This document shows, piece by piece, positions 19,419 to 42,582 of a stretch of DNA of 64,000 bases. Origin of the DNA: an uncultured virus (IMG/VR IMGVR_UViG_3300035208_003515) (taxonomy: Duplodnaviria; Heunggongvirae; Uroviricota; Caudoviricetes); the IMG/VR virus record IMGVR_UViG_3300035208_003515, one strand, 5' to 3'. Under the pieces are notes generated by a model. The model was not told the DNA's origin, did no database searches, and saw nothing but the letters and a program-made list of their open reading frames with translations. The position numbers and the translations under genes were made by a program. The number at the start of each line of letters is the position of its first letter. Position 1 is the first letter of the stretch.

Positions 19419-19785
19419 TAAAGAGATTTTAGACGAAATGGATACAAAGTCTGCAAGGGAACATGAAGAGTGGATAAGGAAAGTCACAAAGCACGAAATT
19501 AAATGGATGGCAATTCGGTTTTTAATTGGCGTAGCCAATGGTATATTTTGTGGTGGTATTGTAGCACTGCTCACTATCATACTCATTAACACATATGTTG
19601 AGATAGCGAAGATACTCGGTGCAACCAATTGGCTATTGGTAAGTGTGCTTGTTGTAGGATTGCTTTGCATAGCCAAACTGATGATTCTTTATTTCGGAAG
19701 CAAATTTCAACTCATCAACTATGATGCTAAAACACCATTATTCATAGATAAAGTAGACAAAAAAACGGAGGCTAAAGATGAATAA
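19405..19785 (+). CDS. Two-TM membrane protein
   Basis: Two hydrophobic segments; GGAGG RBS. Confidence 0.65.
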   Translation: MAKTNKEILDEMDTKSAREHEEWIRKVTKHEIKWMAIRFLIGVANGIFCGGIVALLTIILINTYVEIAKILGATNWLLVSVLVVGLLCIAKLMILYFGSKFQLINYDAKTPLFIDKVDKKTEAKDE

Positions 19786-20602
19786 ACTCTGGTTACTACT
19801 CTTAATTCCTTTACTTCTCACTGGTTTTGCCTGTGTAGGAAATGATGACACGGCAGCGGCAGATTCACTTGCTTCAAAGTTGGCTGCAATGCAGGCTACC
19901 ATACTTCAACATACGGCGGTCATCGATTCCTTAAAATCCGACATAAATCAAAAGGCCTCCAAATCTGAGATAGATGATCTCAATAGAAAAATAAACAATC
20001 TACCCCAGGGTGGCACTTCCTCTGATGTCTACACAAAGGCACAGGTCAATGAGGAAATAAACAAGGCTATTAAGGCACTAAAAGAAGACACTGACCAGTC
20101 GTGGATAAAGAAGACCACAACTACTACGACCACTACAACTGGTACTATATCTGATTATGCTAAACTCATGGATTCAGACGGTGAACTTGAACTATGGTTA
20201 GAGTGGACAGACCCAGACCGTGACGATATAAGGTTCTCTTCTAATTCGGTAGATTTCCAGGTCGCAGTTAAAAATAAGAGTGATAGCACCTGTAAATATA
20301 CAATAGAAATGCGGTTCACTCCTGATGTGGAAGTAGCAGTAAGTTCTTTATCTACGGATGCTACTCAGATACCCAACCCTAACGGTAGCCCTTCTACTAT
20401 CACCGAAAGACCGGATATGGGCACATGGACTATGGAAGGGGCAAGATATCCAGATGGGAGCAAGAGTGCGATTACTCTTGTCTCAGCAGAAGGTAGAATA
20501 TCCCGCAATGCCATAGATAAATATACCATCACCTTGAGACTATCAGAGGGAACACAGAAAGCATACTGGTCAAGAAAATTCTACATTGCAGAAATAGACT
20601 AA
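19778..20602 (+). CDS. Putative lipoprotein with coiled coil and Thr linker
   Basis: Signal peptide with lipobox-like GFA-C; poly-Thr; beta-rich C-terminus. Confidence 0.7.
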   Translation: MNKLWLLLLIPLLLTGFACVGNDDTAAADSLASKLAAMQATILQHTAVIDSLKSDINQKASKSEIDDLNRKINNLPQGGTSSDVYTKAQVNEEINKAIKALKEDTDQSWIKKTTTTTTTTTGTISDYAKLMDSDGELELWLEWTDPDRDDIRFSSNSVDFQVAVKNKSDSTCKYTIEMRFTPDVEVAVSSLSTDATQIPNPNGSPSTITERPDMGTWTMEGARYPDGSKSAITLVSAEGRISRNAIDKYTITLRLSEGTQKAYWSRKFYIAEID

Positions 20603-20689
20603 ATTGCCCCGTCAACTCAAGAATAAATACAAGTGGTATATAAGACAGATACTCGTCTACTCTTGTATGCCATTTAGAAAATTTATAAA

Positions 20690-21610
20690 TTGGATACTAT
20701 GGAAATAAAAACCTGTTCTAAATGTAATCAAGAGCTGCCGGTGGAGGCCTTTCGTAAGAAGAAAGGTTGCAAATACGGAGTTGCTGCTGTTTGCAAATCT
20801 TGTCTTAATGCTGTGGTAAATGAATGTCATTATGGGGAAGGGATTACAAAAGTCTGTAGTACCTGTAAACAAGAATTACCATTAGAGCAGTTCAGTAGGC
20901 ATATCCGCATGAAAGATGGCGTTAGGGCACGATGTAAAGGGTGTGAGGCTAAACGTAGTGCTGTTTATGACAAAACAAAGCAAGGGAAATCTCGTTTTGA
21001 GCGCTTTAGAAAAACAGAAAAGGCAGAAGCTATAAGGCAGCGTTATCAAGGTAGCCCAAAGCAAAAAGCGTGTAAAAAGAGACACGAAAAAACTCCTAAA
21101 TGCAAAGCTACAAGGGATGCATACAGGGCTTCACCAGAAGGTGCTGCTAAAACTAAAGCCACAAATCAGAAGCATAAGAAAACTGAAAGACACAGGATTA
21201 CTACACACCTTTATAATCAAAAACGCAGTAAAATAGCGGGTGTCCGGTTAGATGCAGCCATACGAAGTGGCATATGGTTAGGGTTAAAAGGTAAAAAGAA
21301 TGGGCGTAAATGGGAATCACTCGCAGGGTATACTCTTAAAGAATTAATGGATCATATCGAGAACTTATTCCAACCAGGGATGACTTGGGATAATTATGGA
21401 ACGTGGCATCTCGATCACGTGATCCCAAGAGTGGCATTTTTCTATACAGAGGCCGAGGACAATGATTTCAAGCGATGTTGGGCGTTAGATAACCTACAAC
21501 CGTTATGGTGGCAGGATAATTGTAGGAAGCATTCTAAAATCATTAAACCATTCCAACCTACACTTGATTTACTGTTTAAGAGCAAACATTCACTTGACAA
21601 GATTAACTAA
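20690..21610 (+). CDS. Free-standing HNH homing endonuclease with tandem Cys4 zinc fingers
   Basis: KTCSKC..CKSC, KVCSTC..CKGC; GMTWDNYGTWHLDHVIP...NLQPLWWQDN. Confidence 0.88.
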   Translation: MDTMEIKTCSKCNQELPVEAFRKKKGCKYGVAAVCKSCLNAVVNECHYGEGITKVCSTCKQELPLEQFSRHIRMKDGVRARCKGCEAKRSAVYDKTKQGKSRFERFRKTEKAEAIRQRYQGSPKQKACKKRHEKTPKCKATRDAYRASPEGAAKTKATNQKHKKTERHRITTHLYNQKRSKIAGVRLDAAIRSGIWLGLKGKKNGRKWESLAGYTLKELMDHIENLFQPGMTWDNYGTWHLDHVIPRVAFFYTEAEDNDFKRCWALDNLQPLWWQDNCRKHSKIIKPFQPTLDLLFKSKHSLDKIN

Positions 21611-21682
21611 AGTATGCAATGCTAAGATATTGACCTCACTTCAAATGAAAAGGCATTGTTTTGATGCCAGGTAACTTTTAAG

Positions 21683-22352
21683 ATGGTTCTTGATGGTAGA
21701 GATGCCCCCATCCAGGCAACTGGAATGGTGAACCCTGTAAACTCGGTGAACCCTAAACCTTTTAGGCATGGGAATACCGAACCAAGCATGAGAGATAATC
21801 TCAAGGCGTGCGTAGAGAACGGACACAGGGCATCCAATTTGGATGAAGGTACGTTCCGAACCAAAGCGAAAACTTTGGAACAGCACAGAAATGATGCTGT
21901 CACCTGTAAAGGTAGTAACATTTTTGATCGTTTCAACCATAGTCGGGATCATCGGCTTCGCCCTTATGGTGGGCTTCATTGCCTCCATGAACACCAGCGG
22001 CATGACCACGATGGACATCCTGGTGCTGGGCTTCATCCCGACCCTTTTCTTGATCGCCATCCTCTACGGGGTAAAGAAAAACTGCCCACAATTTCAGCAA
22101 TGAGATTGCACAAACAATCCGTAAATTCGGTGAACCCTAAACTCTATGAGCAAGGGAATACCGAGCCAAGCATGAATCTTAGATTCAAGGCGTGTGTAGA
22201 GAACGTACACGGATCATCCCAAGTGGATGAAGATTCGTTCCGAACTGCGAAGAAATTTGCAGAACCAACCAGAAATGAGTTGGTCGCCTGTTAATCAGGT
22301 GTAACAAATTTGAGTCCGTATGATTACTGGCGGTCGCAGCGGCGGCATCTAA
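21683..22352 (+). CDS. Intron-split 66-aa two-helix membrane protein, putative major coat protein (exons 21683-21697, 21927-22072, 22313-22352)
   Basis: Splicing at the P1/P10-defined sites gives one open frame: MVLDGIVSTIVGIIGFALMVGFIASMNTSGMTTMDILVLGFIPTLFLIAILYGVVRMITGGRSGGI*; C-ending codon bias; strong 3' hairpin. Confidence 0.82.
21698..21926 (+). mobile_element. Group I intron 1 (229 nt, ORF-less)
   Basis: P1 exon GGU with IGS GCC (U-G at splice site); P10 GAU/AUC; P2 GCAA loop; P3 CCCUGU/ACAGGG; P4 UCGGU/ACCGA; P7 GAACG/CGUUC; P8 CAUCCA/UGGAUG; P9 hairpins; terminal G at 21926. Confidence 0.88.
22073..22312 (+). mobile_element. Group I intron 2 (240 nt, ORF-less), paralog of intron 1
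   Basis: P1 exon GGGU with IGS GCCC; P10 ACU/AGU; P2 CAAUUUCA-GCAA-UGAGAUUG; P3 AUCCGU/ACGGAU; P7 GAACG/CGUUC; terminal G at 22312. Confidence 0.88.
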
Positions 22353-22360
22353 GCCGTTTC

Positions 22361-22418: not shown

Positions 22419-22553
22419 ATGGAGAAACAATTTAAGACTTATACAGGAGCAGAAAACTTCTGGGCTAAAATGCGGAAGTCAGGATATAATGCTCGTGTTG
22501 TGACACAGAAAGGCAAATGGACAGTCATTTATACTAAACCAAGAAAGAAATAA
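22419..22553 (+). CDS. Small basic protein (44 aa)
   Basis: Not in track; AGGAGG RBS; MEKQFKTYTGAENFWAKMRKSGYNARVVTQKGKWTVIYTKPRKK. Confidence 0.75.
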   Translation: MEKQFKTYTGAENFWAKMRKSGYNARVVTQKGKWTVIYTKPRKK

Positions 22554-22565
22554 CAGGAGGACAAA

Positions 22566-22670
22566 ATGAAGTTTCAGGGAATAAAGATAAGCAAAGTGAA
22601 AAAGTACAAGGGTGTTACCCTTAAAGGCGGTAAAAAGAAAAAGGCCGACCTTATCAAAATAAAACTATAG
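22566..22670 (+). CDS. Lys-rich peptide (34 aa)
   Basis: Not in track; AGGAGG RBS; MKFQGIKISKVKKYKGVTLKGGKKKKADLIKIKL. Confidence 0.7.
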   Translation: MKFQGIKISKVKKYKGVTLKGGKKKKADLIKIKL

Positions 22671-22680
22671 GAGATTAGTT

Positions 22681-22803
22681 ATGGCGAAAAAGAAAGACGC
22701 ATTAGGTAAGATACTGGACTTTAAAGCTGTGAGACTTCATGGCTTAAAGAAAAAGAAGGCAGTAAAGACACCTAAACAGACTAAAATACACTTTGCATTT
22801 TAA
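22681..22803 (+). CDS. Lys-rich peptide (40 aa)
   Basis: Not in track; AGGAG RBS; MAKKKDALGKILDFKAVRLHGLKKKKAVKTPKQTKIHFAF. Confidence 0.7.
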   Translation: MAKKKDALGKILDFKAVRLHGLKKKKAVKTPKQTKIHFAF

Positions 22804-22813
22804 GGAGCAGAAT

Positions 22814-22972
22814 ATGGCTAAGAAAGTGGTCAGCATTAAATATAATGAAGGCCCGTTCACTTATAGGGCTGATGCTGTTAAAGTGCAGAGGCAATATAAA
22901 TTGCGTGGTCACAAGGCAGTAATTGTTAAATTAGCAAAGGGATACCGTGTTGCTGTCACTAAGTATAAATAG
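22814..22972 (+). CDS. Small basic protein (52 aa)
   Basis: Not in track; AAGGAG RBS; GPFTYRADAVKVQRQYKLRGHKAVIVKLAKGYRV. Confidence 0.75.
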   Translation: MAKKVVSIKYNEGPFTYRADAVKVQRQYKLRGHKAVIVKLAKGYRVAVTKYK

Positions 22973-22981
22973 AGGTGTGCG

Positions 22982-23431
22982 ATGGCCTTTAATTTAAAGA
23001 GATCAGCAGGGGAACTCTATAATAAGGGTGTATTAAAAGCCCGTGAATTAAGGGATGAGGATCAGGTTAAAAAGGGCTTAAAGGTTGCTGTTGTAGTAGA
23101 AAGGGCAGATGGTAAACGTCTCTTAATTAATACCTATGGGGTACGAGGACATGTACAAATAGATGATTTTGAAGAAGAAAGGGTCAAGAACTTCTTAGGT
23201 CATAATCTGGGGCAAATCCGTACTGCACTGAAAGCAGGGAAAAAATGGGTTGATAATAAAGAGAGGATAACCTTTGACTTTTCCACTCCGGCTAAAGCAC
23301 CATCAATGAAAACACCATCAATTAAACTTCCGAAAAAGCGTAAGAGTGCGCCGGTCAGACGGATAGTCACGCCACGATCTCACAAGCAGGGATTTTATTC
23401 AATAACAGAAGGCAGGTGGGTAGATTGGTAA
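22982..23431 (+). CDS. Basic hypothetical protein
   Basis: GAGGTG RBS; K/R-rich C-terminus. Confidence 0.7.
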   Translation: MAFNLKRSAGELYNKGVLKARELRDEDQVKKGLKVAVVVERADGKRLLINTYGVRGHVQIDDFEEERVKNFLGHNLGQIRTALKAGKKWVDNKERITFDFSTPAKAPSMKTPSIKLPKKRKSAPVRRIVTPRSHKQGFYSITEGRWVDW

Positions 23432-23649
23432 AATGGTATCATCCTGGTGTTCAGATGAACTGGCATCACTCTGATCTAAGAGAGGTAAGACGAAGGAACG
23501 CTCTACGAGCGCATAAAGGTGATCTCTTAGCTACAGCACGGGCACTTCAACAGTTAGCTAATGTTACTAATGTAGGAGTAGTAGAGAAAGCGGCACGCCA
23601 GGATGCGGTACATTTCTTTGCGAAATATCATTCTAAGAAGGGGAGATAA
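23416..23649 (+). CDS. Basic hypothetical protein
   Basis: ORF track; R/K/H-rich. Confidence 0.65.
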   Translation: MGRLVKWYHPGVQMNWHHSDLREVRRRNALRAHKGDLLATARALQQLANVTNVGVVEKAARQDAVHFFAKYHSKKGR

Positions 23650-23654: not shown

Positions 23655-26600
23655 TTGAGATTGAAAGTATTTAAGCCTGTGATGCAGGTTTTGTTTGTTA
23701 TAGTGCTTCTACTATCAGAAGCATCAGTTTTTTTTACACCGTATAAAGTAGATGCTGCTCCCATAGTAGAGGGAAACACAGTCAGGATATCACTGAATGA
23801 TGCCTATATTGAAGCTACTCCGGCTACTCTTACATCTTCGGGGTGGGTAGATGTTACATTCTGGACACGATACTATGAAGGGCCGGTGGATGTAGTTTAC
23901 GGGTTTAATGGGTTGGATAATGTCAAAGCTGTCAATCCCCAGGTGTGGGAAAGCTATGTCCATAATAAAACACGTCAAGTTCCTGCCGTTCTAACAGGAA
24001 CATTCAAACCGGATAAAGTTATCTCAACTAATACGGCAGCACTTCGACCATTGAAGGCTGATACGGATTTGAGCCTTAATTCTAAATACACAGAGATTAC
24101 ATATGAGCAAACTGATCCAATCATAGCAAAAGCAGAACGTCAGACTATTAAATTAGCCTATGATACCTATGATTCAAAAACGGGCACGTATTCTTATAAA
24201 TACAATGGGCAGGTTGCTGAAAACTATACAGAAACTTACGTTGACTGGAATCCTAAATCACAGCCAGTCACTAATACTTTATCTCATGCAGGAGCAAATA
24301 AATGGGACGTAGCTCAATATAAATCAGTCGCAAAGAACGAAGTGCAGAAGGCAAGGGTATGGATTGACATACCTTTCAACGGCACTAATGTAGTTTCAGG
24401 CAAATATAACATCGGCATAAAACCGTCTAATTTAACACTTCAACAGGCAAAGGATCAGAGCAAATTATGGTTACTTGACCCCTGGTATAACGCAAGTTGG
24501 TTGTATCGCAAAGCTATAGTTATTGGTCAAACAGACGACTTGGGGCCTGGTATTTATTATCAAGTTAAATTGCTAATTGGAAAATCAAATGGCGCAGATT
24601 TAGAGGACTTTGATTGTGAGAATCATTGCGAGGAGGATTTCGATGACCTGAGATTCACTAAAGACGATGGGACAACCTTACTTGACTACTGGATAGAATC
24701 TTCAGGTGCATCTGGTACATCTTATCTGGCTACTGTATGGGTGGAAGCTGAAATGGAAGATGCCGCAGCAGATACTACGATATATGTTTATTATGGTAAT
24801 GTAGGGGCACCAGCAGCCAGCAGCGGCGCAAATACTTTCATTAAATTTGATGACATTGGGCGTGGCAATGATGGCGATGCTGTAGGGGGTAGCTGGACAA
24901 ATGTGAATAATGTGGAGATAGATACTGCAATATATTGGCCTGGTGCTGGCTCGTCTCGGTCAGGAAGGTGGGCTGGGACAGTTTCAGATGCACGGGTAGC
25001 GCAGTTGTCATCATCTACTATCGCAATACAATTCAGGATGCAAAAGACTGATGCGGCGGGCCCTGTGGTGTGGCATGGTGACGGCGTTACCACAATGTAT
25101 CCGGTGTTCAGGGCTACTGAGGGTTGGGAATACTACGATGGGGTGGGGTACACCAATGTTGAGACCCTGTCTCATAGTACGTGGTATCTATTCGAGTACA
25201 GGAATTTTGACTACGATGCTAACACTTTTGACATGGTTCGGGATGGTGTGGTTAAAAAAGTGGGAGCCGATATGGCGGCATCCGCATTGGGGGCTAATAG
25301 TATACGCCCATACCAGTTAAGCGGGTCTGGTGATTTTTATATAGACAATCTCATCGTCCGCAAATGGACTGCCAATGAACCTGTTTTCTCAAGCGCAGGC
25401 GTAGAAGAGGGATTCCCTACATGTGCCTTAACAGGCACAATAACTACGGCTACAGATGCAGATATAATAACAGGTGGGGAAACCATTATCTTAACATTAA
25501 CAGGTGATACGTGGGTAGCCGCAGGTGCAACTTTCAATGCAATAAGAGATGATATTATTGCAGGTATGGATTCAGCACAAAGTGAGGCAAATGGTTGGGA
25601 TGCAGAATATAAAGCTAACGCAGCAGCATATGTGGCGGATGTAGTAAGAACAAATGATACTGTAGTTACGGTTACAATGTCAGCGTTAGCAACTTATTCA
25701 GTAACAGCATCCGAAACTATTACAGTTACAGTTCCGGCAGCAGCATTAACGTTAGGAGCTGATGTCGTAGCCTCTCCCACTTTTACCATTACAAAGGTGT
25801 TACCATTAGTTTCAACACAGGCAACATCAGTAATTACTACAACCTCTGCATTGGGGAACGGAACTATCACAGATTTAAACGGCGGCGGTAATGCAACTGT
25901 TAGGGGATTTGAGTATGATGTTGATACAGGCGCACCTTATGCACATGAAGTACATGATAATGGTTCTTACGGTGTAGGAGCCTATACCAAAACAATGTCG
26001 GGCTTAACGTCAGGAGAGCTTTACTATAATAGGGCATATGCTACATCTCCCCTCGGAACTGGATACGGAACAGAGGTAACTTTTCTTACCTTGCCATCCG
26101 ATCCTGCTTCTATAACAGCAACGGTAGTCAGTGATTCTGAAATAGACTTAACCTGGCCTGCTGTTGTTTGCGGTGCTGGTACAGTTGTTAATTATTATGT
26201 AAGAGCGAATCTCGGCTCTGCGCCGACATTTAGCGGAGCAGGCGGGACAACAATTTATGATAGTACACTTCTGGCCTATAATCACACTCCACTTGGATCG
26301 GGTGAACACTGGTATTATAGGATGTGGGTTAGGATTACTGACGGAGGGTTAGAACAGTATTCGACAAACTTTGCCGCAGATGATGGTACAGTATTTATTG
26401 CTCCGACAGTCACTACAGGTATATGTTCAGGATCAGGGACTACGTGGGCGTTATTAAATGGGAACGTGACTGCAACGGGTATACCTACAACTGTGACACA
26501 AACAGGCTTTGAGTATGGGTTGACTACAGCGTATGGAACGCTATCTCCCATGAATGTAGGTTCTTTTGGTGCAGGAGCATTTTTTTCAAATCTAACAGGA

Positions 26601-28520
26601 TTATCTCCATCTACTGTTTATCATTATCGTGCAATGGCAACTAATGGAGCATGGGGGTATGGATCAGATGCTATCTTTGCAACCAAAGGCTCACCGGCTA
26701 TTACGACCTACTTTAATACTGGCAGTGATTCTTGTATGCCGATCTATGGCACTACCGTAGCTGCCCAAACATTCACAACATCAGCAACTACACAATATTC
26801 AGTTACATCTGTACGATTAGAGATGCTGAGAGTTCTAACACCTGGTACTGTTACTGTTTCGGTGAGGCGTGCTTCCGGTGGTGTCCCAACAGGTGTTGAT
26901 TTAACCAGTGGAACGATAAATGGGGATAGTTTAAGCACATCTCCACAGTGGTATGACATTCAAATGACTACAGAAACGTCTCTTGAATTAAATTCATCAT
27001 ATGCTATTGTAGTTAGTGCAGCCAGTGGAGATGCTGCTAATTATGTTTGCTGGAGATATGCTTCAGCCGGAGGCTATGCGGGGGGAAATGGAGCAACATC
27101 AACAGATGGCGGAATCACATGGTCAACTTCCCCTGCTGAGTTTGCAGGGTTAGGTGCTTCCCTTTCGAGTGCTCCGTATGATGATGATGCGTGGGTTGCT
27201 CCAACTAATATATATGTAGATGATTCTGTTTATGCATCCGTAACGGCAGCTACTTTTGATACTAATGATTATACTGAAGTTCTGAATGCGTCCACTTTTG
27301 GGTTTGCGATACCATCTTCTGCAACTATTACAGGTATAAAGGTAGAAGTTGACCGTTACTGCGGTGCTGGCGCAGCTAAAGATGGTGTAATCCAGTTGAC
27401 TAAAGATGGTGCTGCAAGGGTAGGAGCAAGTGCAGCCACGGCTACGGCATGGCCTGCTACGTCTACTACAGTCTCTTATGGAGGGGCTGCTGATTTATGG
27501 GGTACTACATGGACTCCAGCGGAAGTAAACACTGCAACTTTTGGTGTGCATATTGCTGCACAAGCCACAGGTGATGATACAGATGTTTATGTAGATTTCG
27601 TCAGGATAACGGTCTATTATTCGTATGATTACATGTTTGAGATATGGGGTAATCAGTCTCTTGAAATCCAGGATGCTAAAGTATTTCAATCATATAAAGA
27701 TACAGGAGATTGGTTAGTTGCAGTCAGGTACGTAAATATTTATGCTCCGTACTATGACACTTACGATGTGAAAAAGTATTTCACTCTCCAGTTAGTAGAT
27801 TCTCTTGGAAATGTTAAAGCCTCAACTGTAATGCCCGCATGGGGCAATAGGGTAGGTTCAATATATCTTTCAGCAACAACTGTGGCATCTTTGACTTACG
27901 GTGGCAGTTATAGGGTACGTATTCAAGGGACTTTTACGGGCACACCATATTCTGAGTATGCGCTTGCATCTACAGATTGGATGGGGGACGATCTTGTTAA
28001 TCTGGATTCATGGGTTATTACCTCCGCCTCGGTTTTGGGGACATATTATTCAACTACAATGACTACCTATATTGCTGAAAGAGGTGAGGTCTTAAACTCC
28101 ACGGGATCGGGGATATTCTCATCTGGTATAGCAGGGCTTTCTACTGTCCGGCCTGCCATCTTTCAGACCTATACAATACCTTCAGCTTACACACCAGGGA
28201 CTATTACTCAAGCAGGAAGATTGGGGATACCAGCATGGCAAACTAATATCGGTACTACGGGAACAGTGATGCTTACACGGTTAGGGAATATAGTTGGGGT
28301 AGGTGGTGATATAATAGCAGTAATAGCGTTTTTGATTATGATATTTATTTTAGCAGCGTTGGCTTTCCCTGCCGGACATACTACGGCTGCATTGGGTCTA
28401 TCTCTTCCAATGTTAGGTGCAGCTATATGGTTCGGTATGGACTTACTCTATATAGGAGTGCTTGCTTTAATAGCGGCGTTCCTGTTTATCAAAAACTTCT
28501 GGATTGATAAAGGTAACTGA
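23655..28520 (+). CDS. 1621-aa membrane-anchored surface protein (DUF2341-like + FN3/Ig-like repeats), putative spike/adhesin
   Basis: Signal peptide; WYNASWLYRKAI...DFDDLRFTKDDGTTLLDYWIE (DUF2341-like); L.P.T.YHYRA.ATN FN3 signature; C-terminal TMs; many N-x-S/T sequons. Confidence 0.8.
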   Translation: MRLKVFKPVMQVLFVIVLLLSEASVFFTPYKVDAAPIVEGNTVRISLNDAYIEATPATLTSSGWVDVTFWTRYYEGPVDVVYGFNGLDNVKAVNPQVWESYVHNKTRQVPAVLTGTFKPDKVISTNTAALRPLKADTDLSLNSKYTEITYEQTDPIIAKAERQTIKLAYDTYDSKTGTYSYKYNGQVAENYTETYVDWNPKSQPVTNTLSHAGANKWDVAQYKSVAKNEVQKARVWIDIPFNGTNVVSGKYNIGIKPSNLTLQQAKDQSKLWLLDPWYNASWLYRKAIVIGQTDDLGPGIYYQVKLLIGKSNGADLEDFDCENHCEEDFDDLRFTKDDGTTLLDYWIESSGASGTSYLATVWVEAEMEDAAADTTIYVYYGNVGAPAASSGANTFIKFDDIGRGNDGDAVGGSWTNVNNVEIDTAIYWPGAGSSRSGRWAGTVSDARVAQLSSSTIAIQFRMQKTDAAGPVVWHGDGVTTMYPVFRATEGWEYYDGVGYTNVETLSHSTWYLFEYRNFDYDANTFDMVRDGVVKKVGADMAASALGANSIRPYQLSGSGDFYIDNLIVRKWTANEPVFSSAGVEEGFPTCALTGTITTATDADIITGGETIILTLTGDTWVAAGATFNAIRDDIIAGMDSAQSEANGWDAEYKANAAAYVADVVRTNDTVVTVTMSALATYSVTASETITVTVPAAALTLGADVVASPTFTITKVLPLVSTQATSVITTTSALGNGTITDLNGGGNATVRGFEYDVDTGAPYAHEVHDNGSYGVGAYTKTMSGLTSGELYYNRAYATSPLGTGYGTEVTFLTLPSDPASITATVVSDSEIDLTWPAVVCGAGTVVNYYVRANLGSAPTFSGAGGTTIYDSTLLAYNHTPLGSGEHWYYRMWVRITDGGLEQYSTNFAADDGTVFIAPTVTTGICSGSGTTWALLNGNVTATGIPTTVTQTGFEYGLTTAYGTLSPMNVGSFGAGAFFSNLTGLSPSTVYHYRAMATNGAWGYGSDAIFATKGSPAITTYFNTGSDSCMPIYGTTVAAQTFTTSATTQYSVTSVRLEMLRVLTPGTVTVSVRRASGGVPTGVDLTSGTINGDSLSTSPQWYDIQMTTETSLELNSSYAIVVSAASGDAANYVCWRYASAGGYAGGNGATSTDGGITWSTSPAEFAGLGASLSSAPYDDDAWVAPTNIYVDDSVYASVTAATFDTNDYTEVLNASTFGFAIPSSATITGIKVEVDRYCGAGAAKDGVIQLTKDGAARVGASAATATAWPATSTTVSYGGAADLWGTTWTPAEVNTATFGVHIAAQATGDDTDVYVDFVRITVYYSYDYMFEIWGNQSLEIQDAKVFQSYKDTGDWLVAVRYVNIYAPYYDTYDVKKYFTLQLVDSLGNVKASTVMPAWGNRVGSIYLSATTVASLTYGGSYRVRIQGTFTGTPYSEYALASTDWMGDDLVNLDSWVITSASVLGTYYSTTMTTYIAERGEVLNSTGSGIFSSGIAGLSTVRPAIFQTYTIPSAYTPGTITQAGRLGIPAWQTNIGTTGTVMLTRLGNIVGVGGDIIAVIAFLIMIFILAALAFPAGHTTAALGLSLPMLGAAIWFGMDLLYIGVLALIAAFLFIKNFWIDKGN

Positions 28521-30382: not shown

Positions 30383-30756
30383 GCAGTCGATTATGGATCG
30401 GAATGTTAATGTTCTATGTCCTAGCTATTGTCATCTGTAATGTCATAGAAGGCGCTCAAATGACTACAGGTGTCAATACAGACATGACTTCAATGGTACA
30501 GCACTCACAGACAAAATCCACTGACACGGCAGGGAATGTAGCTGACTTCTGGACAGTAGGCGCAAGCACACTCTCTACTATAGGTAAGGTTATAACATTT
30601 GATTACACGATGTTTAAAGATGTGAATAATCTTGACCCAGTAACAGGATTACCTATGGCTAATGATTTTGCCATATTCAGATATTTATTAATTGCTATTG
30701 GTGTAGTAATGGTAGTTGAGTTAGTGATAGTATTAAGGCAGGTGATAAGTAAATAA
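30379..30756 (+). CDS. Two-TM membrane protein
   Basis: N- and C-terminal hydrophobic helices. Confidence 0.7.
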   Translation: MSSRLWIGMLMFYVLAIVICNVIEGAQMTTGVNTDMTSMVQHSQTKSTDTAGNVADFWTVGASTLSTIGKVITFDYTMFKDVNNLDPVTGLPMANDFAIFRYLLIAIGVVMVVELVIVLRQVISK

Positions 30757-31028
30757 TGGGGAAGTTTGGACGTATAATGTTTGACCTCTTAATACTTGGG
30801 ATAACCCTCCCCATAGTAATAGGGACATATGACTTATTTACCCATCCCCGTACTGCCGGAGTAGGGACTGGTGGGATTTTAGTGGAGATGGTAGGTGTAG
30901 GCACGGCAGGGTTGGCATTGACCGACCAGACGCTCGCTTTAGTAGGCGCTATACCGTGGGCATTACCGTTATTTGTTCTGATTTGGACTATAATTGACAT
31001 TGCAAGGCCGGAGCAGCCAAAACTATGA
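30756..31028 (+). CDS. Two-helix membrane protein, possible minor coat paralog of the spliced gene
   Basis: LTDQTLALVGAIPWALPLFVL aligns by eye with MTTMDILVLGFIPTLFLIAIL. Confidence 0.6.
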   Translation: MGKFGRIMFDLLILGITLPIVIGTYDLFTHPRTAGVGTGGILVEMVGVGTAGLALTDQTLALVGAIPWALPLFVLIWTIIDIARPEQPKL

Positions 31029-35801: not shown

Positions 35802-37115
35802 ATGAAACAGCTTCTGTTCGTTCTATTTGCGTTTATAGTGGTATTTGCCTCTTGTCTCCCTCTAATTGAACCGGCCACTATGTCCGACCAGTCAGGGACA
35901 CTGGATATATCTAAGACAATTACACTGGCTGGTGATATAGTTATGATCCCAGGAGCTACCGTGGATGGAGTGGATATCTCTACCATCGGAGGTGCATCTC
36001 ACGCTCAAGGGACAGACACTACACTTGGAATACAGACAGCAGATGCTAACTGGGGTGGATTTGATATTACCAATGTAGGCCTCGTAGATGGAGTAGATAT
36101 CTCAGCCTCAGTCCATGCACAGAATACTGACTGGACACTATTAAATGCCACCGGAGGCGTAAACCTAATTCATAACGGCTATATAGCCAGCGACTTGAGG
36201 ACGGATAGATGGTCACTCAATGATGATAATACATTGTTCGGCGTTGATGTGGCAGGGGGTTTGGGTGGACTGACCGGTGATATGAACACTGCCTATGGTA
36301 CTCAAGCTATGTATAGTATCACTTCAGGAGATGCAAACACAGCCGTAGGGTGGAGATCACAGAGAGGACTTACAGATGGTGATTTCAATACAGCAATAGG
36401 GGAGCAGTCACTTACAGCACTAACTACAGGACATGGCAATACGGCTGTAGGAGTATCTACACTTGCTTCAGTAACTACCACAGGTTATAACACAGGTGTT
36501 GGTGCAGACGTATTATGGAATGCTACCAGCGCATATAACACAGGGGTAGGGGCTTTTTCCGGCGCAGCCGTAGTAGATGGCGGCTACAATACCTATTTGG
36601 GTTACGATGCTGGAAACGATAATGTCAGTGGTGACAATAACGTAGCCATAGGCGCACATGCAGGCCACACTAACACCGGATCAGGCAATGTATTCTTAGG
36701 TTATAAAGCAGGAGAAGATAGTGGAGCGGTCAGTAACACACTTTGGATTGATAATTCAGACGATACCACTCCCCTAATCTATGGGGATTTTTCGACTGAT
36801 AAAGTCACAATCAATAATACTCTGGTAGTAAATGGTTCATTTAACTATGGTGCAGATGCAGAGGCCTCTGATGCCTATGTGGTTACAATTACAGGGATAA
36901 CAGCCTACACTATAGGGCTTCCGGTATATTTCAAGGCAAACACGGCTAACACAGGGGCGTGTACTCTAAATATCAATTCATTAGGGGCAATATCATTGAA
37001 ATCAAAAGGTGGGTCGTCTGATCCTGAGAATAATTATATAATAGCTAATGAAATAGTACATTGTGTCTACGATGGCACTAATTTTCAAATAATAAATCCT
37101 GATGCGGAGCCTTAA
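35802..37115 (+). CDS. Fibre/adhesin-like protein with Gly-Asn-Thr-Ala repeats, possible lipoprotein
   Basis: N-terminal FAS-C; ~14-aa NTA(V/I)G repeats typical of beta-helical fibres; FKANTANTGACTLNIN C-terminal module. Confidence 0.7.
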   Translation: MKQLLFVLFAFIVVFASCLPLIEPATMSDQSGTLDISKTITLAGDIVMIPGATVDGVDISTIGGASHAQGTDTTLGIQTADANWGGFDITNVGLVDGVDISASVHAQNTDWTLLNATGGVNLIHNGYIASDLRTDRWSLNDDNTLFGVDVAGGLGGLTGDMNTAYGTQAMYSITSGDANTAVGWRSQRGLTDGDFNTAIGEQSLTALTTGHGNTAVGVSTLASVTTTGYNTGVGADVLWNATSAYNTGVGAFSGAAVVDGGYNTYLGYDAGNDNVSGDNNVAIGAHAGHTNTGSGNVFLGYKAGEDSGAVSNTLWIDNSDDTTPLIYGDFSTDKVTINNTLVVNGSFNYGADAEASDAYVVTITGITAYTIGLPVYFKANTANTGACTLNINSLGAISLKSKGGSSDPENNYIIANEIVHCVYDGTNFQIINPDAEP

Positions 37116-37981: not shown

Positions 37982-38788
37982 ATGAAAACGTGCGCAAGAT
38001 GTAAGCAACTGTTGCCGTCAGATGCATTTGGTAAAGTTAGTAGTAGCAAGGATGGTTTATCGTGGTCGTGTAAAGGGTGTATAAAGGAACGGTTAGAAGA
38101 GCGTATTAAATCAGGCAGATATGGTGCTGCTGCTATTGTATACGCACAAACGCATATAAGTAGGGTCTGTACTAAATGCCATCGTGATTTACCTTTGAGT
38201 TCATTCTATAAAGATAGTAGGTTAAAGTCAGGATTATACTCATACTGTAAAGAATGCATGGCTAAAGCATCCGCTGATTATAGGAGAACTCCACGAGGGA
38301 AAGCATCAGCAGTTGCTATATCTCTACGATATCAGAAGACAGATAGAGGAAAAGAAATGGTGGAGAATTGGAAAAACTCAGATATTGGGAAAGCTTCTGC
38401 TAAAAAGAGAGATCATAAGTTCCGTCAGTCTAAGAAAGGGATAGCTGCACGTAAGAAGAGAGTCAAAACAGAGAAATATAAAGCAATGATGAGACGGTAT
38501 ATGCTATCTGATAAAGGCAGAGCAAAGATAGCGAGGGATCGTCACAAGCGCAGGAGTAAAACAAGATCATTGCTGGCAACACTTACTGCTGAAGAGTGGA
38601 ATAGTATCAAGGGTAGATATAAAAATAGGTGTGTTTATTGTGGTGAGAAGAAATCTTTAACAATGGATCACATCATTCCACTTAGCAAAGGTGGGACGCA
38701 TACTAAAGATAATGTTGTTCCAGCATGTGTTAGCTGTAATTCAATTAAAGGTAATAGGCCAGTTTTATTACAGTTGCTTGTGATATAA
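37982..38788 (+). CDS. HNH endonuclease with tandem Cys4 zinc fingers
   Basis: KTCARC, RVCTKC repeats; CVYCG...TMDHIIPLSKGG..DNVVPACVSCNSIK. Confidence 0.9.
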   Translation: MKTCARCKQLLPSDAFGKVSSSKDGLSWSCKGCIKERLEERIKSGRYGAAAIVYAQTHISRVCTKCHRDLPLSSFYKDSRLKSGLYSYCKECMAKASADYRRTPRGKASAVAISLRYQKTDRGKEMVENWKNSDIGKASAKKRDHKFRQSKKGIAARKKRVKTEKYKAMMRRYMLSDKGRAKIARDRHKRRSKTRSLLATLTAEEWNSIKGRYKNRCVYCGEKKSLTMDHIIPLSKGGTHTKDNVVPACVSCNSIKGNRPVLLQLLVI

Positions 38789-38822: not shown

Positions 38823-39557
38823 ATGTTTAACATCCTGAAAGCAGAGATGCCAGGGATACCAGAATATTTCAATGCTACTACAATCTTAGGACTTCCCGTG
38901 GCAACTTTCGCAGTGGTACTCTTTATATCACTGATAGTTCTTGGTGCTTTAGGATTCTTTTGGTGGGATAGATACAAACTAAACAAGAATAAACAATCAA
39001 CACATAATCGGGTAGTGGTTGTTATTATGAGCGAAGGTGGTGGACGTGTACGCCGTGAACTATGTGAAGTCTATAAAATGGAAGCCAAGAAAATAGAGAC
39101 ACGTAGCAGGGCGACCTTCATGGCTTCGGCCTACGTCAAGCCAGTACATGGAAGCATGGACGCATATTATTGTTTGCCCGAACACGACTACTTAGATGCT
39201 TGGCCTATTAATGCAAGGCCAGCACAGCAGGTCATACTACAGACATATTATTTCAAAGAAAATGATCCTTGCCCTCAAATGCCACACGACCCAAGCTCTT
39301 GGGACACGGAAAGGTATGTAAGGATAACCTCTGCCATCGCTAAACTTGCCAAAGATGAGAGTAATTTGCAAGTGTTGGTATCAGAAATGTCTGGTGTGTG
39401 GCAGAATATAGCTGACTTTGTAAAGAAGTTGAGTTTAATTCAGATACTCTTATATATGGTAGGAGCTGACATACTTTTAGATTTATTCAATGCGTTTATG
39501 GGTTTTCAAAGCAGTAATGGAATATCACAGTTAGTTAAGTTCTTAGTAGGCAAATAG
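38823..39557 (+). CDS. Membrane protein (N- and C-terminal TMs) in the ATPase gene block
   Basis: Hydrophobicity; AGGAG RBS. Confidence 0.7.
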   Translation: MFNILKAEMPGIPEYFNATTILGLPVATFAVVLFISLIVLGALGFFWWDRYKLNKNKQSTHNRVVVVIMSEGGGRVRRELCEVYKMEAKKIETRSRATFMASAYVKPVHGSMDAYYCLPEHDYLDAWPINARPAQQVILQTYYFKENDPCPQMPHDPSSWDTERYVRITSAIAKLAKDESNLQVLVSEMSGVWQNIADFVKKLSLIQILLYMVGADILLDLFNAFMGFQSSNGISQLVKFLVGK

Positions 39558-39559
39558 AA

Positions 39560-40102
39560 ATGAGAGAGCCACCAAAGAATCCTTTTAAAGAAGCAGAAGA
39601 GACTGAGCAGGAAGAGATGGCTTTGCCCAAAATCCCTGAACGGATAGCTACACCTGTTATGGCTTCCGAACTACCCAAAGTAGAAAAAGAGACAGTTAAG
39701 GGTAATGGGCATAACCCTGATGCTGATGAACAGGCACTCCAAGATAAGAAAGAGGAAGAACAGCAGAAAAAGGAAGAGGAGGAAGAGCTTGAGCGGATGC
39801 GGGAAGAGGCCGAAAACTCTAAAATCCCAGGCTCAGGCTACCTCTTTAATGTCAAGAAAAAACACCTTCCTGAAGCCACTCGCTTGAATGAAAGGGAAAT
39901 ATTTACCTTTGGGGTAGGCGCAGTACAGGATGCTGTGCTTGACCTTAATCGCAAGGAATCCGTGTTTGACATATTTGCTGCCAATATCTTCCGACTTAAA
40001 ATCTCAGCCGGTGGCAAAGGCCGTGAAGAAAATATCGCTGTCCGGCAGGTAGACGCTGAGGAAAAAGCCAATGCACGTAACGGAGCTATGAATGGCCTAT
40101 AA
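39560..40102 (+). CDS. Acidic hypothetical protein upstream of the ATPase
   Basis: Glu-rich N-half; overlaps ATPase start. Confidence 0.65.
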   Translation: MREPPKNPFKEAEETEQEEMALPKIPERIATPVMASELPKVEKETVKGNGHNPDADEQALQDKKEEEQQKKEEEEELERMREEAENSKIPGSGYLFNVKKKHLPEATRLNEREIFTFGVGAVQDAVLDLNRKESVFDIFAANIFRLKISAGGKGREENIAVRQVDAEEKANARNGAMNGL

Positions 40103-41105
40103 AATCCCTGAAGTGGTCATAATCCCCGACTCCAATTCTAAGAAGCTGTACGGGATTGAGCCTGTTATCATTACGAGAGAAGATATGACCTCAATATCAG
40201 GCTGGTATAAACTCGCAGTCAACCATGATATGTTCCTGAATGAAAGAGAGTTTAAAAACCGTGATACCTTTATGAAATACTGGATGATCTCAATGGGTAT
40301 GACAGAATATCCATTTATGATCTTCTATGGTAATGAAGGTGGTGGGAAGTCAATGGGGATGGCGGTTACGGCGCATCGTCTTATAAAATACTTTGGTAGG
40401 AAACCTACGCTGGACTTCACTCCACCGGAGGGCGAATACTACAGACCTTTTAATTCAGTCATAGTAAGGGAACAAGCTATAGAAGTCCTGCAAAAGATGG
40501 GCGATCCTGAAGGCAAAATCCCCAGGTATCAGGCTGAAATAGCGGAATTAAAGAAAACCCCTCCATTCTTCAACTTCTACGATGAGGACTTTGTAGAACG
40601 AATTAAGAACGAACTTGACCGGCTGCAAAGGACTGAAAAAGAACTCACCGCAAAGGGTGAGCAAGTCCCACAGGAAGAGTTTGAGAAATTAGTCATTTAT
40701 AATGCCGTGTTTGCTTTAGATGAAGGTGACTCATACGGTGATATCCAGGCACAGACTAATTTAATTAAACTGATCGGTAGGATAGCCCGCAGACGTAGGC
40801 ACACCCACACTACTATATTAATGGCCTATGTTGATTTAAAAGACATACCGGAGAGGATTATCTTAAATAGGGCTACACATCAAGTAATGTGTGCTAAGAA
40901 CTGGGTATATGACGGATACTGTTCTTATAGAGTGACAGACGTAAGACAGGGCGGAAGTGGCGAGTCTAAGTTCATGCATTTAAAGCCTCAAGACTGTACT
41001 CACCTTTGGAATAGTCATAACTTAGTATCAATCAGTCACGATGTTGAAATAAAGTTTGGCAATAAGGGAGCAAAGAAAAAGAAAGTCTCCGTGGAGGAAA
41101 AGTAA
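40092..41105 (+). CDS. P-loop ATPase, Zot/FtsK-HerA-like morphogenesis or packaging type
   Basis: Walker A GNEGGGKS; Walker B FALDEG; RRH arginine-finger-like motif, then hydrophobic strand and DIPERI. Confidence 0.75.
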   Translation: MAYKIPEVVIIPDSNSKKLYGIEPVIITREDMTSISGWYKLAVNHDMFLNEREFKNRDTFMKYWMISMGMTEYPFMIFYGNEGGGKSMGMAVTAHRLIKYFGRKPTLDFTPPEGEYYRPFNSVIVREQAIEVLQKMGDPEGKIPRYQAEIAELKKTPPFFNFYDEDFVERIKNELDRLQRTEKELTAKGEQVPQEEFEKLVIYNAVFALDEGDSYGDIQAQTNLIKLIGRIARRRRHTHTTILMAYVDLKDIPERIILNRATHQVMCAKNWVYDGYCSYRVTDVRQGGSGESKFMHLKPQDCTHLWNSHNLVSISHDVEIKFGNKGAKKKKVSVEEK

Positions 41106-41106
41106 A

Positions 41107-41367
41107 ATGGGATTTTTCGATAGGATAAGTGGCGGAGGGCAAATACCCGTCCACGAAAAAGTAACCAATGTACAGATCACTCCTATAGGCGTAGAGAAAG
41201 TAGAGAAATCTTTAGCTAATGGTTTGGAGTTTGACGTTTTAGTATCTATTAAAAAGTGTCAGCCATGCTCAGTAGATGAAGTAGCCCGTGACCTTAATAG
41301 ACCGGAGAATAAGATACGGTATGTCATGCGTTGCCTAAAAAACAAAGGATGGATACAAACTTTATGA
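41107..41367 (+). CDS. Winged-helix DNA-binding protein
   Basis: SVDEVARDLNRPENKIRYVMRCLKNKGWI; start chosen at 41107 after GGAGG. Confidence 0.7.
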   Translation: MGFFDRISGGGQIPVHEKVTNVQITPIGVEKVEKSLANGLEFDVLVSIKKCQPCSVDEVARDLNRPENKIRYVMRCLKNKGWIQTL

Positions 41368-41478
41368 AAGCGTTTCTTGGCGGATTTGCTACTTTTCTTG
41401 GATACCTGTGTACCTTTGTAATTGGAGTAGGCGTAGGCTTCTTACTCTGTCTATTGGCTAAAATTTAGGAGGATCAAA

Positions 41479-42582
41479 ATGGGAAAGAATATAGCGAAGG
41501 ATTTTGAAAGAATGTGGAAAGTGGCAAATGATAAGGCTATTGATGCTGTCTTATCAGCAGCAGATGATGAAGATATGAAAGATCGTAAACTAATAGACTG
41601 TCGAATTGCAGATCAAAGGGCACAGTATCTTAAAATGATGTTTGATATGTACAATCCTTCACAATCTACTAACTTCAGTATATAAGATGAAAAAGCACTG
41701 GAAAACAATCTTAATATGGATAGGTGGGATAACTCTTGGTGGAGTCATATCTTACTTTATGGGCTTGGCTGTGCAAAGTATTTTGAAGCAACAGAAGGTA
41801 TCTTATACACTTGACATCGGTAACAACTGGTGGCTGGTATCAGCGATATTTATACTGATGTTCGGGCTTGTTGTAGCCGGATTCTTTTTGGGACGGAAAC
41901 TTGAAAATCATTAAAGCCATCTGTGCGTTTATCGACTGGTTATTGATTTTTCACGGCTATGACCTGTATGGTAACTATGAGCGAAAAGGATTTCCCGTAG
42001 CATCCTTTAAATGCAAGTACTGTGGAGATTTTTATAAGTCTATACTAAGGAATGATACCTGTAGTAAACTAAGATGTTTCGTAGGCTACAGAGCGAGGTA
42101 AAGAAATGGAGTTCGTGTCAACCTGTTATTCAATCCAAACCATAGAGGAGCTATGTAAAATCCTTGTTGCAAAAAAACACGCCCGTCTTTTACATGATAG
42201 TTCTAAGTATCTAAAGACACCGGACGGACGTATTGACCATCCTGGTAATAAATTTAATGTTAAACAGTATGAAGTAGAGGCGCACAACCATTACGAAGCC
42301 AACTATCAGGTATTCGTGGGCAAATCATTTGAAGCCATAGATGTATCTGTACGCTTCTGGTATGACAAGAGAATAGACAAAGCCGGAGTCAAGATCAGCA
42401 GGGCAGGGCTTAATCTTATACTTAAATCTATGACTGTAGTGGGGCTTCTCCGACAATTGAATTTAAAGGTCACTAATAATGGGACGGATGAGGTTAATCT
42501 TGACCTTGTAAAAGACGTACTTACACAGGCTATTAAACTAAAATCAGCAGTTGATTCTAAGATTGAAATTGTAACTGAATAG
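41479..42582 (+). other. Four small hypothetical ORFs (41479-41685, 41642-41914, 41901-42101, 42106-42582)
   Basis: ORF track; contiguous with RBS. Confidence 0.6.

Follow-up and report, generated by a model that had tools for sequence, protein, structure and literature searches.

Spindle-shaped viruses of the Fuselloviridae, Halspiviridae, Thaspiviridae, and Bicaudaviridae leave cells that have only an S-layer without lysing them, and bicaudaviruses have genomes of 62 to 76 kb. The Pleolipoviridae and Plasmaviridae are enveloped, pleomorphic viruses that leave by budding; they have genomes of 7 to 17 kb, depend on host glycosylation, and infect hosts without peptidoglycan, i.e., wall-less cells or cells with only an S-layer. 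To our knowledge, nearly all known bacterial double-stranded DNA (dsDNA) viruses larger than ∼20 kb are tailed. Here, we analyze a stretch of 64,000 nucleotides (nt) from an uncultured virus (IMG/VR record IMGVR_UViG_3300035208_003515), referred to in the following as the window, and in particular its block of membrane-protein genes, which lies at 19.4-44.2 kb on one strand. We suggest, with a probability of about 0.5, that this block is a membrane-associated morphogenesis and surface module of an undescribed lineage of large dsDNA viruses of bacteria, probably without head or tail.

The closest kind of described element is that of the non-tailed, membrane-assembled dsDNA viruses of cells with a membrane and an S-layer, i.e., IME1 elements, fuselloviruses, pleolipoviruses, and plasmaviruses. 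By the comparisons made here, the element is a member of none of these groups, from which it differs in size and in having a bacterial replisome, a tRNA array, mobile introns, and an N-glycosylation system of its own. With spindle viruses it shares a small hydrophobic two-helix candidate coat protein, large anchored adhesins, basic proteins that presumably bind DNA, and a probable exit without lysis. However, it has bacterial signals (sigma70-like promoters, DnaB, FtsH, group I introns, and CCA on 17/17 tRNAs) whereas spindle viruses have archaeal hosts, and we know of no tRNA array, group I intron, DnaB, or virus-encoded transferase in the spindle-virus families. Likened by description, it resembles the Pleolipoviridae and Plasmaviridae in having a signal-peptide spike with a C-terminal anchor, small proteins with multiple transmembrane (TM) segments, and a P-loop NTPase; unlike these viruses, it is larger and encodes its own oligosaccharyltransferase. 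The fold of its ATPase is near those of HerA, STIV2 B204, and the Zot N-domain (Z 11.2-12.4), a likeness to the Inoviridae and to PRD1/STIV2-type viruses. In contrast to pI of the Inoviridae, however, the ATPase has neither a TM segment nor a periplasmic domain, and compared with all these viruses the genome is 6-10 times larger and has its own replisome. Similarly, whereas the Inoviridae and other Tubulavirales have single-stranded DNA genomes of 4-12 kb and replicate by rolling circle, the element is found on a 75,858-nt contig with DnaB and a polymerase. Large tailed phages (jumbo and T5/T4-like Caudoviricetes) have in common with it a tRNA array, HNH/NUMOD3 genes, introns in conserved genes, a DnaB replisome, auxiliary sugar genes, and tail-fiber-like repeats; they differ from it in that neither the 64 kb analyzed here nor 63.4 kb of a relative has a recognizable terminase, portal, capsid, sheath, tube, tape measure, or lysin.

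As the closest precedent we regard the IME1 lineage of Dehalococcoides; its elements are much smaller, and homology to them was not detected. IME1 elements are proposed as non-tailed dsDNA viruses that bud or are filamentous, and are described as having a size of 21-28 kb, integration by a tyrosine recombinase, an archaeal-type primase-helicase, a pI-like ATPase, and small hydrophobic proteins (bioRxiv 10.64898/2026.09.15.751708). Compared with this description, the likenesses are the lack of tailed-phage hallmark genes, a Zot/pI-like ATPase beside several small TM proteins, a Chloroflexota-type bacterial host without peptidoglycan (in our case a presumed one), large adhesion-type anchored proteins, HNH endonucleases, and a YopX-like gene, which in our case is found in the relative described below. 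The differences are the 75.9-kb contig, which is three times as large, DnaB, the polymerase, the 17 tRNAs, and an oligosaccharyltransferase with a glycan pathway; moreover, Pfam recognized no integrase and no primase-helicase in the window. Zot-like genes of 12 Dehalococcoidia-class genomes are remotely similar to the ATPase (∼20 bits), while IME1 itself was compared by description.

Results

The ATPase and its conserved partners

The block encodes a predicted ATPase flanked by conserved partners:

38823..40102, + strand: upstream partners of the ATPase, a 244-aa protein with two TM segments and a 180-aa acidic protein (57-86% and 52-76% identity in relatives, order kept)
40092..41105, + strand: 337-aa predicted FtsK-HerA/Zot-type P-loop ATPase (Walker A and B invariant)
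41056..42582, + strand: downstream partners of the ATPase, a 103-aa winged-helix protein, small TM proteins of 45 and 90 aa, a 66-aa Zn-ribbon-like protein, and a 158-aa protein

An earlier reading of this DNA, made from its letters alone and here called the sequence-only reading, had named a Zot/FtsK-HerA-like ATPase, and this assignment holds. Pfam gave no match for the window's ATPase itself; among 42 members of its family, AAA_22 was recognized in 11 (best E 2.5e-4) and Zot (PF05707) in 5 (best E 1.3e-6). The family profile had as its top match among PDB sequences 2r2a, which is titled Zot N-terminal domain (E 0.0024). An AlphaFold model built from a deep alignment reached a pLDDT of 90.6 (a shallow-alignment model with a pLDDT of 51 was set aside). 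In VIA-align comparisons, this model matched HerA (Z 12.4), the STIV2 B204 packaging NTPase (11.9), TcpA (11.5), RecA (11.4), the Zot N-domain (11.2), and VirB4 (11.0), and because all lie within about one Z unit, we regard these matches as tied. A search of BFVD returned Zot as the two best matches, followed by DnaB-like helicases. Altogether, sequence and model identify a predicted ATPase of the FtsK-HerA/Zot type and not a terminase.

The ATPase family is rare, with 11 relatives in a set of 5.8 billion proteins and 46 clusters among 1.84 billion representatives, and identity across relatives is 69-92%. The winged-helix protein matches a TrmB-like winged helix-turn-helix domain (E 2e-5), and the ESM Atlas gave no usable match for the 158-aa protein. 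The order of the genes for the ATPase, the winged-helix protein, and the 158-aa protein is kept down to 39-46% ATPase identity (loci L014 and L015). On these comparisons, the ATPase and its partners appear as the most widely conserved part of the lineage.

The lineage is present in groundwater and landfill metagenomes from several studies, and none of the 13 runs listed for it is an RNA run. A scan of JGI metagenomes gave 15 loci, each of at most 12.8 kb and all within the window's range, and no relative was found in IMG/VR with the ATPase, its alignment, or the transferase. GenBank phages had no DNA match to the block and no ATPase match, and the 1621-aa surface protein described below matched them in repeat domains only; likewise, the block had no near or protein-level match among 50,697 phage records apart from fiber and repeat domains. 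By tblastn, the ATPase had no match in 72,556 plasmid records. At E 1e-5, the ATPase profile was found in 0/401 sampled genomes of the Dehalococcoidia class, and among 401 genomes of the phylum of the metagenome-assembled genome (MAG) G002 it was found solely in G002, which was already known to carry it.

Membrane and surface proteins of the block

TM segments are predicted in 13/35 open reading frames (ORFs) between 19405 and 44486. Besides the ATPase module and the intron-split gene described below, the block encodes:

19405..19785, + strand: 126-aa protein with two predicted TM helices, the first gene of the arm (GGAGG site upstream; no family)
19778..20602, + strand: 274-aa secreted or lipid-anchored protein with a coiled coil and a Thr-rich linker (N-terminal hydrophobic segment)
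22419..23649, + strand: small basic proteins of 44, 34, 40, 59, 149, and 77 aa (pI 10.3-11.3; no family)
23655..28520, + strand: 1621-aa secreted surface protein with a C-terminal multi-TM anchor (DUF2341/LamG-like, choice-of-anchor R, Ig/FN3-like repeats)
28520..30382, + strand: 620-aa secreted FN3-like protein with a C-terminal TM anchor (weak fn3 match, E 0.0045, below the cut-off)
30379..31028, + strand: two small proteins of 125 and 90 aa, each with two predicted TM segments (no family)
31025..35236, + strand: 1403-aa non-membrane protein with coiled-coil regions, a Gly/Ala-rich hydrophobic stretch, a (Pro-Ala) repeat, and a conserved C-terminal domain
35802..37115, + strand: 437-aa fiber-like protein with an N-terminal signal/anchor and beta-helix-type repeats (PHROG virion structural and tail spike families)

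The sequence-only reading had described many TM proteins, a run of basic peptides, a fiber-like protein, and two large anchored DUF2341/FN3 proteins. The first three descriptions are borne out: the TM count is as given above, several of the basic proteins follow GGAGG-type Shine-Dalgarno sites, and the 437-aa protein matches PHROG virion structural and tail spike families (E 2e-25 to 5e-15) and, by tblastn, tail fiber or tailspike genes of 48 phage records over at most 48% of the query. As for the fourth, both large proteins have a signal-like N-terminal segment and two or three C-terminal TM segments, and the 1621-aa protein matches DUF2341 (Pfam, E 1.3e-16) and choice-of-anchor R (E 8e-11); the fn3 match of the 620-aa protein is weak and falls short of the cut-off. 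The two proteins weakly share Ig-like repeats (E 0.003). In the relative L002, the 437-aa protein is swapped for other anchored proteins. The 274-aa protein has a marginal spanin-like PHROG match (E 0.0016).

Close relatives share 55-61% identity with the 1403-aa protein over its C-terminal end. This protein had no match to a tape-measure PHROG, and its scores in the ESM Atlas were at chance level only. At 34541-34792, ahead of the conserved C-terminal domain, ∼42 Pro-Ala dipeptides (CCN GCN) follow one another in perfect frame; this run is predicted to act as a long flexible linker.

Head and tail genes in the window and in a diverged relative

The window covers 64,000 of the 75,858 nt of its own contig, and proteins from both window ends are on that one contig. 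Its 85 scanned ORFs (31 of the block and 54 elsewhere) were compared with Pfam and PHROGs. None (0/85) matched a terminase, portal, capsid, tail tube, sheath, tape measure, baseplate, or lysin, and the fiber-type repeats of the 437-aa protein were the sole matches in a structural category; the sequence-only reading had likewise recognized no terminase, portal, HK97 capsid, tail, or lysin in the 64 kb. No jelly-roll capsid candidate was recognized in the window. The longest contigs of relatives have 91,462, 73,094, and 46,535 nt.

A distant relative was found in MAG G002, in which the ATPase relative is on contig C127 (E 2e-63), the best match of the transferase on C162, and a DUF2341 protein on C131. 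Joined through terminal overlaps of 26 and 150 nt, these contigs amount to 63,433 nt. When 11 of the relative's proteins were looked up, 10 were found, and all 10 were on one 64,348-nt contig of another assembly. The relative has homologs of the window's DnaB (36%), polymerase (36%), and several small ORFs of the replication arm as well as of a 125-aa basic protein, the ATPase module, the transferase, and sugar genes. The homolog of the 1621-aa protein has 1259 aa; an ORF of likewise 620 aa aligns with the whole 620-aa protein at 33% identity; the 274-aa protein is matched by a homolog that agrees with it in size and position (E 7e-6); and the C-terminal end of the 1403-aa protein is found inside a 3514-aa ORF. 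The latter ORF (L124:101-10645; C131 13601-24145) also has a LigT-like phosphoesterase domain (E 1.9e-9). Gene order in the membrane block is kept and the larger layout is rearranged. Among 68 ORFs of the relative compared with PHROGs and 51 compared with Pfam, no head, tail, packaging, or lysin family was found. The relative encodes SSB, a Gam/Gp157-like protein, YopX, and a VRR-NUC nuclease, and its 63,433 nt contain no tRNA.

The same MAG holds head and tail genes on two other contigs. C269 (L105) encodes a terminase, portal, capsid, sheath, and tape measure, with three clamp-loader genes beside the packaging genes, and C242 (L107) encodes baseplate genes. We considered these contigs as part of the relative virus, given a GC content of 35.8% vs 36.3% and the clamp-loader genes, and rejected them: their ends do not overlap with those of the relative and no genes are shared. 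Of nine proteins of C269 and C242 looked up, seven were found, none (0) of them on the 64,348-nt contig; close relatives, one of them named after an Anaerovoracaceae MAG, are on contigs of 45,988, 57,821, and 60,203 nt. C269 and C242 are, as judged from these comparisons, from an unrelated, ordinary myophage of that bacterium. The cluster of the C269 capsid protein has 71 members across many samples.

Glycosylation genes and the host

Downstream of the ATPase module are the following genes:

42585..44156, + strand: predicted AglB/STT3-type oligosaccharyltransferase with at least 11 TM segments and a WWDYG motif (Pfam STT3, AglB core, TIGR04154)
44496..59656, + strand: glycan synthesis and modification cluster of ∼15 kb (GT2, GNAT, two radical-SAM/SPASM proteins, WbqC, 4,6-dehydratase/epimerase, DegT aminotransferase, methyltransferases, GT1/GT4)

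Pfam STT3 matched the product of 42585-44156 with 25.9 bits (cut-off 24.5), the AglB core with an E of 2e-4, and TIGR04154 with 196 bits (E 8.5e-58), which is below its cut-off of 450. Eleven TM segments are predicted and WWDYG is read in the translation. We therefore assign it, by homology, as an oligosaccharyltransferase of the STT3/AglB type; the active site of these enzymes is outside the cytoplasm. The anchored proteins contain N-X-S/T sequons, 16 in the 1621-aa protein and 9 and 5 in the others, with no enrichment beyond composition (z 0.7, 1.3, and -0.9). In literature listings, we found no paper on a phage paired with an oligosaccharyltransferase and nothing relevant on jumbo phages of Dehalococcoidia. 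Within the sugar cluster, the 638-aa product of 56407-58323 has 11 predicted TM segments and matches no family; a second GT-C-type transferase, a polymerase, or a flippase is possible.

The best full-length cellular relatives of the transferase are mostly from MAGs of Dehalococcoidia and other Chloroflexota (22-35% identity), and five of those transferases, from Dehalococcoidia, have next to them a gene with 38-40% identity to the adjoining GT2. These two genes lend some support to Chloroflexota as the host phylum, which the sequence-only reading had guessed.

A two-helix protein gene split by introns

Between the 274-aa protein and the basic proteins lies a gene for a small hydrophobic protein, with one homing endonuclease gene just upstream of it and another farther along the block:

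20690..21610, + strand: free-standing HNH homing endonuclease (PHROG endonuclease VII/HNH, E 9e-29; strain-variable)
21683..22352, + strand: 66-aa two-helix membrane protein (exons 21683-21697, 21927-22072, and 22313-22352; two group I introns)
37982..38788, + strand: second HNH homing endonuclease (Pfam HNH, E 8e-15; present in L003, absent in L002 and L007)

A ∼230-nt element is present in two copies at 21.7 and 22.1 kb (74% identity in repeat finding, ∼80% when aligned), and an 86-aa ORF between the copies has an almost invariant core, with 26 invariant columns in 9 homologs. Five homologs open with a short N-terminal peptide, which in the window sits 229 nt upstream, and one homolog, in which an insert at another position is read through, has at its end the peptide that is found 240 nt downstream in the window. 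The exon/intron junctions were derived from the homologs without intron 1 and the one without the third-site intron. They give introns at 21698-21926 (229 nt) and 22073-22312 (240 nt) and a spliced frame of 201 nt that is open, encodes 66 aa, and has two predicted TM helices. The base before each intron is T, and the last base of each intron is G. RF00028 spans 22063-22262 over its full model with 31.3 bits (E 3.9e-6 for that stretch), which is below the gathering score of 50. In Logan contigs of run X4, from a study other than that of the likely source run, DNA is joined from 21677 to 21936 and from 22069 to 22320, which indicates intron-less alleles at both sites; another X4 contig skips 20752-21591, i.e., the HNH gene. 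Across strains, this 200-nt gene has group I introns at three different sites. With U before the 5' splice site, a terminal G, precise absence in intron-less alleles, and the core, the gene is, on comparative grounds, split by two mobile group I introns. Thus, the spliced two-helix protein predicted in the sequence-only reading appears to be real.

Two further proposals of that reading did not hold up. It had suggested a likely paralog of the small protein; the 126-aa ORF at 19405-19785 aligned with the 86-aa ORF at E = 12, and the ORFs at 30379-30756 and 30756-31028 gave no alignment. It had also compared the protein with the coat of spindle viruses; the exon-2 product and six other small TM proteins had no PHROG match to VP1-type small hydrophobic coat families at E <= 1, and what is shared is the two-helix architecture only. 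The sole PHROG match of exon 2 is a holin family (E = 1, not significant). In G002, a query with the exon-2 peptide was not found, and the 66-aa protein has no sequence likeness to its positional counterpart, a 72-aa ORF with two TM segments. A match of the exon-2 peptide in IMG/VR (L103/G806) was spurious; it was a homing-endonuclease match only, with no ATPase. An N-T-S motif in the loop between the two helices is invariant, and the C-terminal end has two charged residues only. That this protein is the coat protein is our guess.

The two HNH genes are related, both having N-terminal zinc-ribbon repeats, and the one just upstream of the intron-invaded gene could encode its homing enzyme. In four of four runs, Logan contig depth rises several-fold over the HNH motif (21272-21415) and the intron cores (21704-21847 and 22136-22279), and contigs break there, which we attribute to related endonucleases and introns being common in these communities.

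Layout and expression signals

The window has a G+C content of ∼41% and contains no N. Genes run leftward from ∼19.4 kb to 3.5 kb and rightward from 19.4 kb to the window end, and GC-skew and gene orientation both switch at a divergent promoter pair. Other features are:

3495..14629, - strand: replication arm, with DnaB helicase (3495-4781), a 535-aa DNA polymerase-like protein (11858-13465), and a NUMOD3/HNH homing endonuclease (13487-14629) (Pfam, PHROGs)
18851..18925, both strands: divergent sigma70-like promoter pair (TTGACA-17-TATTAT on each strand, 11/12 matches each), between the replication arm (-) and the membrane block (+)
60005..61462, + strand: membrane-anchored FtsH-like AAA protease of 485 aa (Peptidase_M41 E 1.5e-42, AAA E 6e-38; phrog_30773 E 6e-121)
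62537..63958, + strand: array of 17 tRNA genes (encoded CCA in 17/17)

Gene packing is dense and one-stranded with many small ORFs, which also fill the replication arm, and many ORFs are preceded by GGAGG-type ribosome-binding sites. Over the region as a whole, sigma70-like sites show no excess (39 vs a shuffle mean of 50). The sigma70-like promoters, GGAGG sites, CCA-tRNAs, HNH/NUMOD3 genes, and group I introns indicate a virus of a bacterium, and that the element is viral is supported by the homing endonucleases, group I introns, 17-tRNA array, DnaB, and polymerase. The expression signals on which the sequence-only reading had relied were for the most part found as described, i.e., Shine-Dalgarno sites, promoters with 11/12 matches, CCA on 17/17 tRNAs, and DnaB, to which the group I introns are added; its lipoboxes are merely near-canonical in the translations.

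The endonuclease gene directly adjoins that of the polymerase (11858-14629). The window's polymerase had no match in a PDB sequence search and none to PF03175, the protein-primed family. The relative in G002 encodes it as two pieces (390 and 136 aa; L123:16882-18054 and L102:4975-5385) ∼17 kb apart on opposite strands, and the 390-aa piece has a sub-threshold match to PF03175 (protein-primed family B, E 7e-5); a protein-primed polymerase is a lead only. For the tRNA at 63177-63251, ARAGORN gives a four-base anticodon (ggcc) and no amino acid, and it is missing from the Rfam gathering list (15 matches); possible explanations are a tRNA akin to frameshift suppressors, a degenerate copy, and a miscall. 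phrog_30773 is a PHROG family of unknown function, and the FtsH-like protease may serve in quality control of the many viral membrane proteins.

Discussion

Four observations lead us to favor a module for membrane-associated morphogenesis of a virus that is probably non-tailed. First, two diverged members of the lineage, each covered over ∼64 kb, have no recognizable head-tail gene. Second, the ATPase belongs to the class found in membrane-containing and filamentous viruses and is not a terminase. Third, the membrane block is conserved and lies where the late, structural arm is expected, opposite the replication arm. Fourth, secreted anchored proteins with 5-16 sequons each adjoin a virus-encoded transferase. 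In addition, no lysin was recognized, which would suit the likely host, a bacterium lacking peptidoglycan, and IME1 provides a precedent. The sequence-only reading, which had proposed a non-tailed, membrane-assembled virus with a spindle-virus-like coat, is thus upheld for the conserved membrane module, the Zot/HerA-type ATPase, and the lack of head-tail genes in the window and in the 63.4-kb relative, but not for the homology to spindle-virus coats.

Other observations weigh against this interpretation. None of the genomes is established as complete: the window leaves out 11.9 kb of its own contig, the contig of one relative reaches 91,462 nt, and the relative in G002 has no terminal repeats and is not closed. 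The Pfam and PHROG comparisons of the window brought up no primase, SSB, or clamp; hence, more genome probably exists. The two 64-kb stretches are not fully independent evidence of absence because homologous regions were covered. The 437-aa protein resembles tail fibers, no coat protein was identified by homology, and the host assignment is based on identities of 22-35%. Finally, the array of 17 tRNAs, the numerous homing endonucleases, the group I introns, and the replisome based on DnaB are features that large tailed phages typically have and that are not known from non-tailed prokaryotic viruses.

The strongest alternative, to which we give a substantial minority of our credence, is a large tailed phage of at least 100 kb whose head, tail, and packaging genes lie outside the contig and in which the block is an accessory module for surface remodeling. 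Virus-made glycoproteins and glycans would then block superinfection or replace the S-layer, and the ATPase would have another membrane task. The usual marks of large tailed phages in the window, the contig that is incomplete or has unmapped ends, relatives that reach 91 kb, the tail-fiber-like repeats, and the replication genes expected alongside DnaB that were not seen in the window all fit such a phage. However, the two relatives without head-tail genes in ∼64 kb each are not only diverged but also rearranged, and the longest contigs of four diverged members are all 64-91 kb. Moreover, one would not expect an accessory module to be better conserved than the rest of a lineage, it would be unusual to find a conserved HerA/Zot-type ATPase next to a terminase, and the sole head-tail contig in the relative's MAG belongs to another phage.

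A second alternative concerns the 66-aa protein and would fit either type of virus: together with the 126-aa two-TM protein and the 274-aa coiled-coil protein, it would form a holin-type lysis cassette rather than a coat. Its size and two-TM layout fit class II holins; in addition, the one PHROG match of exon 2, although not significant, is to a holin family, and the 274-aa protein is marginally spanin-like. We nevertheless consider this function unlikely. The core of the protein is nearly invariant (26 columns in 9 sequences) vs 69-92% identity for the ATPase, whereas holins usually diverge fast; the loop sequon is invariant; the C-terminal end has few charged residues; the gene is at the head of the arm behind early-type promoters; and no endolysin is found among the 85 window ORFs.

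A non-viral element, i.e., a plasmid-like or other extrachromosomal element or an S-layer/glycosylation island with an ATPase from a conjugation or secretion machine, is very unlikely: the ATPase fold also matches VirB4, TcpA, TrwB, and EccC (Z 10.4-11.5), the set of anchored proteins, transferase, and sugar genes is reminiscent of cellular surface loci, and in one Dehalococcoidales locus (L020) the transferase has as its neighbor a partial homolog of the 1621-aa protein, but Pfam found in the window ORFs no relaxase, coupling protein, VirB4-size ATPase (the ATPase has 337 aa), VirB2-type pilin, or partition gene, the plasmid records and the two sets of 401 genomes have no ATPase match other than in the known MAG, the genes are densely packed on one strand with many small ORFs, and there are genes of phage type (HNH and NUMOD3 endonucleases, group I introns, and the tRNA array, with Gp157/Gam-like and YopX genes in the relative).

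Returning to the membrane-associated, non-tailed virus, we suggest that the anchored proteins and the small hairpin protein would enter the host cytoplasmic membrane, where the virus's own transferase would N-glycosylate them on the outer face using a virus-made glycan. The basic proteins would condense the genome, and the ATPase, its DNA-binding partner, and the small membrane proteins would move DNA or drive assembly at the membrane. Particles, which may be pleomorphic, filamentous, or spindle-shaped, would then exit by budding or extrusion through the peptidoglycan-free envelope of a Dehalococcoidia-like host; because such an envelope lacks peptidoglycan, no lysin would be needed. In its most specific and still doubtful form, this proposal describes a new lineage, possibly at the level of a family or above, of large (64-91 kb), non-tailed, enveloped viruses of peptidoglycan-less bacteria with a coat of the 66-aa hairpin protein and giant anchored spikes that are N-glycosylated by their own AglB-type transferase with a virus-made glycan, and with HerA/Zot-type ATPase-driven assembly and release without lysis.

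Whatever the answer on the tail, the element is unusual as a virus with an oligosaccharyltransferase, its likely substrates, and a complete glycan pathway, in having an ATPase of so rare a family (46 clusters among 1.84 billion representatives), and in a 200-nt gene with group I introns at three sites across strains. Its lineage is found in groundwater and landfill, habitats in which Dehalococcoidia matter for pollutant breakdown. If the enveloped, glycosylated virion is real, it would be the first bacterial virus with its own N-glycosylation system. Genomes of such size in non-tailed viruses that bud or are extruded are so far seen only in archaeal viruses. If true, a lineage of 64-91 kb without head-tail genes would be to bacteria what the large spindle or pleomorphic viruses are to archaea and would extend archaeal-style budding or extrusion to bacteria with an archaea-like envelope.

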